From Verrucomicrobiota bacterium (GTDB lineage Bacteria > Verrucomicrobiota > Verrucomicrobiia > Limisphaerales > UBA11358): a DNA stretch of 64,000 nucleotides. A model generated the notes under the pieces. It made no database searches. It had not been told where the DNA came from and saw only the letters and a program-made list of their open reading frames with translations. Where the stretch lies: NCBI GenBank assembly GCA_049523555.1, contig JBEKMU010000013.1, positions 2,707 through 66,706 on the forward strand, in the 5' to 3' direction. Shown piece by piece: positions 30,387 through 31,975 of this stretch; within the stretch, counting starts at the first letter, position 1, and every line of letters begins with the position of its first letter. The translations under genes were made by a program, and so were the position numbers.

Positions 30387-31975
30387 TCAGTACCGGTAGT
30401 GTTCCGGCTTGTAAGGACCTTCGACTGGTACGCCGATGTAGTTGGCTTGTTTTTTCGAGAGCTTGGTGAGCTTCACGCCGATTTTTTCGAGGTGCAGGCG
30501 GGCGACTTCCTCGTCCAGTTTCTTGGGCAGACGATAGATGCCGACTTTGTAGGTGTCCTTGTTCTTCCACAAATCCAATTGCGCGAGCACCTGGTTCGTG
30601 AATGAATTCGACATGACAAAACTTGGATGGCCCTCGGCACAACCGAGATTCACCAGCCGGCCTTCGGCGAGCAAATAAATGCTGCGGTCGCCGGGCCTTC
30701 GCCGCGCCGAAGTGTCATTGCCCTTCGAGTCTGTGGCCAAGTCGCCGGATTGCGCTTGCTGAGTTGTCGGGCTGGCTTCGGCCACGCAGGCGGGCAGTAG
30801 CGGTCCACTTGCGGCTTGATGTTCACTTTGCTGACGCCTTTCGCGTTGTTCAGCCGGTCAACCTGGATTTCGTTGTCGAAATGGCCGATGTTACAAACGA
30901 TGGCCTGGTCTTTCATCTTCAAGATGTGTTCCAGCGTGATGATGTCGCAGTTGCCAGTGCAGGTGACGTAAATGTCGGCCTCGCCCAGCGTGTCTTCGAC
31001 GGTCTTCACTTCGAACCCTTCCATCGCGGCCTGCAGGGCGTTGATGGGGTCAACCTCGGTGACAATCACCCGCGCGCCGAAACCGCGCAGCGAATGAGCA
31101 CTACCTTTGCCGACGTCGCCGTAACCGCAAACGCACGCGGTCTTGCCGGCAATCATCACGCCGAGCGCGCGTTTGAGTCCGTCAGCGAGCGATTCGCGGC
31201 AACCGTAGAGGTTATCGAACTTCGATTTCGTGACGGAGTCATTGACGTTGATGGCAGGCACGAGGAGTTTGCCGGCTTCGAGCATTTGGTAAAGCCGGTG
31301 CACGCCGGTGGTGGTTTCCTCGCTGACGCCTTTCCAGTCCTTTACCGCCTGCTTGAACCAGCCCGGACGTTCCTTCGCACATTTCCTCAAAAGATTTTTG
31401 ATGACGGTGACTTCGTAATTGTCGCTGGGCGTGTTGACCCAATTGTCGCCCTGTTCCATTTCGTAACCCTTATGGAGGAGCAACGTGGCGTCGCCGCCGT
31501 CGTCCACGACCAGCTGCGGACCTTTGTTACCCGGATGCGTGAGCATGTCGAGCGTGAACTGCCAGTATTCCTCCAACGATTCACCCTTGAAAGCAAACAC
31601 CGGCACCCCGGCCCTGGCGATGGCGGCGGCGGCCTGGTCTTGCGTGGAAAAGATGTTGCACGAGGCCCAGCGCACGGACGCGCCGAGTTCGACGAGTGTC
31701 TCAATGAGCACGGCGGTCTCGATGGTCATGTGCAACGAACCGGAAATGCGCACGCCCTTGAACGGCTTTTGCGGGCCGTACTTGGCGCGGATGGACATGA
31801 GACCGGGCATTTCCTGTTCAGCGACGGAAATTTCGCGGCGGCCGAGGTCGGCCAGCGAGAGGTCGCGGACGTAATAATCATGCTTCGCGCCGTTGCCATT
31901 GGTCTTGGCGGGTTTGACGCGCGGAGGTGAAAGTTTGATGGTACTCATGTTTTTACGTGTTGCGTGTTGCATCAA
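30387..31975 (-). pseudogene. ahcY: Adenosylhomocysteinase, reading frame interrupted (two overlapping ORFs 30650..31975 and 30387..30785)
   Basis: The N-terminal ORF carries the AhcY sequence through [10 protein letters not shown]. The C-terminal ORF, in the -1 frame, resumes at [30 protein letters not shown]...PEHYRY. The two conserved blocks are separated by about 100 nt instead of about 18. Confidence 0.7.

Follow-up and report, generated by a model that had tools for sequence, protein, structure and literature searches.

We wondered why ahcY, the gene of the core methyl-cycle enzyme adenosylhomocysteinase, is divided between two reading frames in a 64,000-nt stretch of DNA from a Verrucomicrobiota bacterium (contig JBEKMU010000013.1; the whole stretch is called the window here), and what the extra DNA at the break represents. 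On the minus strand the gene reads normally up to VDRY, whose Tyr codon lies at 30799-30797, and reading resumes in another frame at DRSIYLL (30689). A sequence-only reading of the window had described this arrangement, and we could confirm it, as two ORFs with Pfam matches on both together contain the AdoHcyase and AdoHcyase_NAD domains that span the whole of AhcY. The ORF 30650..31975(-) holds the AdoHcyase N-terminal and NAD domains, corresponding to the N-terminal three quarters of adenosylhomocysteinase (PF05221, E=1.7e-102; PF00670, E=1e-67). The C-terminal part of AdoHcyase is found in the other frame, in the ORF 30387..30785(-) (PF05221 profile positions 220-299, E=2e-39). In tblastn the 5' part was 93.6% identical to residues 1-388 of the homolog P0001 and the 3' part 93.4% identical to its residues 386-521, and the best PDB match of AhcY was 6uk3 (E=6e-203). 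The distance between the Tyr codon and the Asp codon of DRS, estimated before at about 100 nt, measures exactly 107 nt (30796-30690). The start codon given in Table 1 is the one called on an identical metagenome contig described below; an alternative ATG (MSTIKL) is located at 31948. metK and ahcY are neighbours in the window and in other relatives, unlike in the orthologous locus L005, where a gene for a 23S rRNA intervening-sequence protein (PF05635; L005 6279-6638) separates the two.

Table 1. Features of the metK-ahcY region, in coordinates of the window.
Feature	Position	Strand	Description
metK	31986..33179	(-)	directly upstream of ahcY; intact, 397 aa; used to find the identical contig
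ahcY 5' part	30797..31972	(-)	ATG 31972-31970 through the Tyr codon of VDRY
4-nt deletion site	30796..30797	(-)	from DNA alignments with five orthologous loci and contig L007
Out-of-frame tail of the 5' ORF (...KAGW*)	30650..30796	(-)	48 codons; TGA 30652-30650
Intragenic repeat element	30692..30794	(-)	CCCG to CCCG, 103 nt; net insertion 99 nt = 33 codons
Element, 5' end	30794-30774	(-)	
Element, variable interior	30773-30714	(-)	
Element, 3' end	30713-30692	(-)	
ahcY 3' part (...EHYRY)	30387..30691	(-)	stop 30389-30387; the frame also reads the element as PACVAEA...TSARRRP

A conceptual fusion of both AhcY halves was used as the query in a homolog search. The closest homologs, several distinct sequences from JGI, ENA and NCBI, read VDRY-DL-[PACVAEA…TSARRR, 33 aa]-PGDRS. 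The three closest clusters (P0001, 94%; P0002, 90%; P0003, 91%) are 521 aa long and carry VDRY-DL-PACV(A/D)EAS... in frame. The same 90% cluster comprises six more full-length members of 521 or 529 aa, among them the NCBI protein MGA2243126.1, which was found on 16 contigs. The next relatives (P0004, P0005 and others) have 488 aa, lack the insert and read VDRYDLPGDRS. Comparison of the filled 521-aa with the unfilled 488-aa homologs thus defines an insertion of 33 aa (99 nt) between Leu386 and Pro420. The insertion proposed from the sequence is therefore real and in frame in relatives, but comprises 33 rather than 32 residues; the loop peptide proposed for it is the one that relatives encode, except for one missing Asp, and the usual spacing between the two conserved blocks is 4 codons (DLPG in insert-free relatives) and not about 6. 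None of the solved AhcY structures contains the insert, whose position falls between chain residues 386 and 387 in 6uk3. An AlphaFold model of P0001 based on a shallow alignment had a mean pLDDT of 46.7 and was unusable for loop geometry.

The lesion that shifts the frame became visible in DNA alignments with five orthologous loci and the otherwise identical contig L007, a comparison that had been recommended beforehand: all of them are in frame, and 4 nt are missing in the window. The intact sequence ...CGC TAC GAT CTG CCC... is replaced by ...CGC TAC TG CCC..., and the five orthologous loci read CG(C/T) TA(C/T) GA(T/C) (C/T)TG CCC GCC. Because of the flanking C, loss of CGAT and loss of GATC are indistinguishable. 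The missing nucleotides belong to the Asp-Leu codons and are located 3 nt upstream of the insert; the junction reads TACGATCTGCCC with GATC and TACTGCCC without it. GATC is under-represented in the window (131 observed vs 239 expected) and, less strongly, in the loci of relatives. Since the relatives share this depletion, it was uninformative as a clue to the deletion.

The window MetK is encoded residue for residue on a 43-kb JGI metagenome contig (Ga0427951_001145), on which ahcY is a single uninterrupted ORF of 529 aa. Three overlapping stretches covering window 6163-40360 (34.2 kb) were compared. Over window 26990-40360 (13.4 kb) we found 0 mismatches and one gap, the 4 nt described above, and over window 6163-27875 there were 3 mismatches and no gap. 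Both ahcY halves are thus free of any other mutation relative to the intact allele, the ORF being disrupted with 0 other differences over 13.4 kb. By this agreement of about 99.99% identity, the two assemblies represent the same population. They are nevertheless different assemblies with independent consensus sequences, and the window extends beyond the end of the JGI contig. All differences between them lie in or beside repeats, the substitutions in a GTAG repeat and the gap 3 nt from a dispersed element. The three substitutions (window 22248, 22269 and 22301; C>A, C>A and T>A in the window) cluster within 54 nt at a palindromic repeat with a GTAG tag, GTAGGG(C/A)GCGTTCTCCGAACGCGCC, partly inside it and partly next to it. 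A Fer4 gene and a ROK gene flank this repeat, whose perfect hairpin is broken in the window's version. The JGI contig terminates (~40360) inside the first of two tandem paralogous genes of unknown function (window 40150-41435). Among the records searched, only the JGI contig carries the window's neighbouring proteins, and neither the truncated AhcY product nor one of the neighbouring ORFs is on record. When metagenome contigs were scanned for the junction, with 0-4 intervening nt allowed, only an intact locus came back.

The intact ahcY of an otherwise matching contig leaves three origins for the break: a mistake in assembly or consensus calling, a minority allele, or a mutation that has only just arisen. 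We infer that ahcY is intact, or was so until very recently, and that the gap came either from such a mistake or from a minority allele that the assembler picked up (probability roughly 0.55). Our leaning follows from ahcY being a conserved housekeeping gene with no visible backup and no further decay, from the intact state of the lineage's only other observation and from the confinement of all inter-assembly differences to repeats. The ahcY gene is a normal housekeeping gene carrying a 99-bp copy of a small dispersed repeat that is free of stop codons and that relatives translate in frame as a 33-residue loop. The frame change is an event separate from the insert, a loss of CGAT or GATC; on our reading it would have arisen at the border of repeated sequence and would constitute neither a decaying pseudogene nor a recoding signal. 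An error had indeed been among the explanations offered earlier, albeit as a single base inside the insert; the intact contig speaks for this option, but the lesion is a 4-nt gap at the upstream edge. What argues against an artefact is that sequencing errors typically take another form than the loss of 4 nt outside a homopolymer. A k-mer-based assembly would also need read support for the junction, which makes a real allele plausible, and as the window comes from another assembly than the JGI contig (three substitutions, longer extent), a true strain difference is possible.

These considerations lead to the strongest competing explanation, less probable in our view and still a serious contender, namely a genuine and very recent loss-of-function allele. 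Here, 4 bp would truly have been lost at the element's upstream junction, giving rise to a nascent pseudogene whose AhcY product is truncated after residue 384 and deprived of its C-terminal ~100 residues. The deletion is present in the given sequence, is not of the homopolymer type, and separates two independent consensus sequences. It also sits exactly at the 5' border of a tract that has apparently spread laterally between lineages (see below), so element-associated breakage and repair could be its cause. Against this stand the position of ahcY next to metK, the conservation of ahcY in every relative examined, the intact state of the only other observation of the lineage, and the complete lack of further decay. 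Nor is there a backup gene: a second ahcY, luxS or mtnN, which the earlier reading had advised to look for, was not detected within the window, the range of this search, using E. coli queries. A pseudogene beside an intact metK had been proposed earlier; the disrupted ORF and the intact neighbour hold, and as both halves otherwise equal the intact allele, such a pseudogene would have to be extremely recent.

Recoding, the third explanation put forward earlier, is very improbable. A programmed -1/+2 frameshift or ribosomal bypass would yield full-length AhcY from two intact halves, and if the frame changed by -1 immediately behind the Tyr codon, the protein would be one residue shorter than those of relatives. 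The arrangement resembles programmed ribosomal frameshifting of the prfB and dnaX type in that two overlapping ORFs jointly encode one conserved protein, but it differs in having no slippery site, stimulatory element or conserved shift. The site CGC-TAC-TGC-CCG contains neither an X XXY YYZ heptamer nor a homopolymer, all relatives, the 99.99%-identical contig included, are in frame, the region 30680-30810 folds no better than shuffled sequence (z=+0.40), and Rfam gave no match there. The folding and Rfam results, together with the structure-free interiors of the long copies (see below), led us to reject a hairpin or RNA element in the extra segment. The sole Rfam match in the window at the gathering threshold is a tRNA gene at 63305-63375 (+). 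Still less credible is a split enzyme whose two ORFs are translated separately and reassemble across a flexible loop, because, even though an inserted and presumably flexible loop is where the gene is broken and the ORF 30387..30785 could start at a GTG, GTG 30785 is not preceded by a Shine-Dalgarno-like sequence, no relative has a split ahcY, and the 5' ORF would bear a 48-residue out-of-frame tail. The frameshift is real in the given sequence but probably of little biological interest beyond a read check. It matters for annotation only, where ahcY should receive no pseudogene or recoding label before such a check.

We next turn to the extra segment. Judged by its sequence, it is a copy of a dispersed repeat family, a point missed in the sequence-only reading. 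The last 21 nt of the element (ACTTCGGCGCGGCGAAGGCCC) occur at 96 places in GTDB species-representative genomes, mostly in peat and soil MAGs of Verrucomicrobiae/Verrucomicrobiota, which hold several each. Further occurrences fall in Alpha- and Deltaproteobacteria, in Acidobacteriota and in other phyla, one of the genomes being that of a Bradyrhizobium oligotrophicum isolate. In 91/100 occurrences, this 3' end has an upstream partner, CCGCCTGCGTGGCCG(A/T/G)AGC, which is directly adjacent in 40 copies (net 39 nt) and exactly 60 nt further away in 45 (net 99 nt); rare variants have 63, 66, 96 or 132 nt. The family can be written as CCCG-CCTGCGTGGCCGAAGCC-[0 or 60 nt]-ACTTCGGCGCGGCGAAGG-CCCG, with a net length of 39 or 99 nt, and the ahcY element matches both end motifs exactly. 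Among 54 non-redundant copies, CCCG is present at the two ends in 48/54 and 53/54 cases; the 54 flanks are distinct and unrelated, with no conservation beyond CCCG. The empty ahcY site of the ortholog L006 (TTGCCCGGCGAC) reads TTG-CCCG-GCGAC, in line with a direct repeat of 4 bp.

The ends of the element pair as an interrupted 13-bp stem (CGCC-GCG-CCGAAG / CTTCGG-CGC-GGCG), an imperfect and short inverted repeat, and the 60-nt interiors add no structure (43 long copies, mean z=-0.06). In the conserved ends, all six frames are free of stop codons. One copy (101 nt) has a length that is not a multiple of 3, and it is located outside any read-through ORF of at least 100 aa. In the MAG MFD02416.bin.2.131, five copies (L009, L031, L058, L069 and L076) have related interiors (40-75% identity within the cluster containing them) and unrelated flanks (13-33%), indicating that the long form spreads as a unit. 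Two elements, a 132-nt and a 99-nt unit with a shared junction, are arranged in tandem or nested within one ORF at L052 3409-3642.

The window holds no other copy of the element. An 18-nt exact match to its 3' end (TTCGGCGCGGCGAAGGC-) without a 5' partner is found at 33842-33859 (+), inside an ArsR/SAM-methyltransferase gene (33270-34229) where it is read as FGAAKA. This match is 94% kept in the L005 and L006 orthologs and may be a coincidence or an old remnant. Viral contigs contained no copy of the 3' 21-mer. A search for an autonomous partner in 699 kb of flanking DNA revealed no unpaired or far-apart ends, and no transposase lies between the inverted pair of copies in L042, whose neighbours are an Hsp70 family gene (Pfam) and a gene for a 431-aa putative membrane protein. 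The encoded peptide (PACVAEA...TSARRRP), used as a 43-aa alignment profile against a set of 5.8 billion proteins, gave 56 candidates, none with E<=10.

Placement inside genes is a general property of the long form, as in 46/49 long copies an ORF of 150 aa or more continues through the element without interruption. The hosts include two alpha-L-rhamnosidases, GH2 and GH92 glycosidases, YfhO, a CitMHS transporter, a TPR protein, a dihydrouridine synthase (Dus) and Hsp70, and the element is positioned between Pfam domains or at their edge. Host genes use at least three frames of the element, and both of its orientations (PACVAEA..., ...ASATQAG, RLRGRS...FGAAKA). Short copies also reside in the loops or arms of other palindromic repeats. 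The short form was observed within host-specific palindromic repeats of Alphaproteobacteria (L050, L059, L060, L071, L091) and Deltaproteobacteria (L021, L022, L033, L061, L064, L075), in contexts such as GTCATGCCCGGGCTTGTCCCG^GGCAT... and ACCCCGTTAGAAAT..CCCG^CTGGAATTTCTAACGGGGT, which suggests a preference for CCCG in hairpin-forming DNA. The 39-nt form is further found exactly within the DPPY/DPPF motif of DNA-methyltransferase-like ORFs (L044 5933-6010; L086 (-) ~7470); in L044, the copy contains an in-frame TAG and a second related repeat follows it, so the gene may be disrupted.

Insert-bearing AhcY sequences are not monophyletic (0/200 bootstraps), and one AhcY clade (89% support) unites filled (L030, P0001) and empty (P0004, P0005) members. 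Of the 99 nt of the element, 0, 2 and 2 differ in the comparisons among L007 (the window lineage), L001 and L030; the other 99-nt windows of the gene show minima of 6, 4 and 3 differences and medians of 11, 11 and 8, respectively, and the flanks of these lineages differ by ~12%. In comparisons with L004 and L005, the element is as diverged as the remainder of ahcY. The tract that is identical in L007 and L030 ends 4 nt upstream of CCCG, at the position of the window's deletion. This pattern suggests recent lateral spread of the element or its repeated entry into the same ahcY codon, and simple vertical inheritance would not fit it. Short-patch homologous recombination would give the same picture at the ahcY site, where the sample is small.

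A bolder reading, tentative and in our opinion rather doubtful, is that the 99-nt segment is an active micro-element that lands at CCCG, is built for tolerance in genes and re-enters one and the same ahcY codon in different Verrucomicrobiae lineages in a homing-like manner with the help of a putative trans-acting enzyme; the deletion would then be a scar of integration or repair. If the element were mobile and homing-like, it would rank among the smallest mobile DNAs known, would readily supply proteins with new surface loops and would repeatedly give rise to what looks like insertions and frameshifts when MAGs are annotated.

Palindromic repeats lying in frame within genes are already known, as Rickettsia palindromic elements (RPEs) and as GTAG/CGTC-tagged REPs (PMC3733652). 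RPEs are likewise short repeats of tens to ~150 bp with partly self-complementary ends (PMC3733652, its refs 13, 14), placed in frame within ORFs that probably still encode functional proteins, to which they add a peptide segment (PMC3733652). Compared by description, the element reported here apparently has another sequence and occurs in other hosts (Verrucomicrobiae and other free-living phyla), and it differs in its two discrete net sizes (39 and 99 nt), its CCCG direct repeats and the identity of its ends across phyla. Intragenic GTAG/CGTC-tagged REPs and their dimers are most numerous in Opitutus terrae, a member of the same phylum (Di Nocera et al. 2013, PMC3733652). There, singles and dimers are inserted in frame into genes of known function and encode 20-30 aa, and the spacers of the dimers are similar in length and different in sequence, reminiscent of the 60-nt interior of our element (PMC3733652). 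In contrast, our element begins with CCCGCC... and ends with ...GGCCCG without a terminal GTAG or CGTC tag, GTAG appearing solely as an internal variant (GGCCGTAGCC), and its halves are not clear stem-loops. None of the peptides RRAEV, SATQAG, ACVAEA, RRGEGP, FGAAKA and SARRRP is contained in the supplementary lists of PMC3733652, and a literature string search found the end motifs in no searchable paper. With bacterial MITEs the element shares its non-coding nature, short direct repeats at the ends, 91 paired copies at 54 unrelated sites and the existence of filled and empty orthologous sites, and its short, imperfect 13-bp end pairing is reminiscent of their terminal inverted repeats. At 39 nt its short form is far smaller than usual MITEs, no autonomous partner was found in the 699 kb of flanking DNA, and it lies mostly inside coding sequence with its length kept at multiples of 3. 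Going by placement and ends, the family works like RPEs and intragenic REPs but lacks the GTAG/CGTC tag that marks the latter.

The extra ~100 nt are more interesting than the frameshift, for here a core methyl-cycle enzyme carries, in translated form, a very small and widespread element that may still be mobile. Many Verrucomicrobiae have the same 39/99-nt element in frame in unrelated proteins, and the ends of its short form are identical in Alpha- and Deltaproteobacteria and in Acidobacteriota. AhcY proteins of other Verrucomicrobiae (P0020, P0022, P0024, P0042 and P0118; P0024 from the AhcY tree) contain a different insertion of 17-20 aa after ...LTHP (alignment A1, columns 144-160). Its sequences, VAATPSSQ..GRRG(A/V)AATC or DKVGQASRLSRAGETPAPLL, read like translated DNA palindromes, so other repeat families have seemingly invaded AhcY at another loop.
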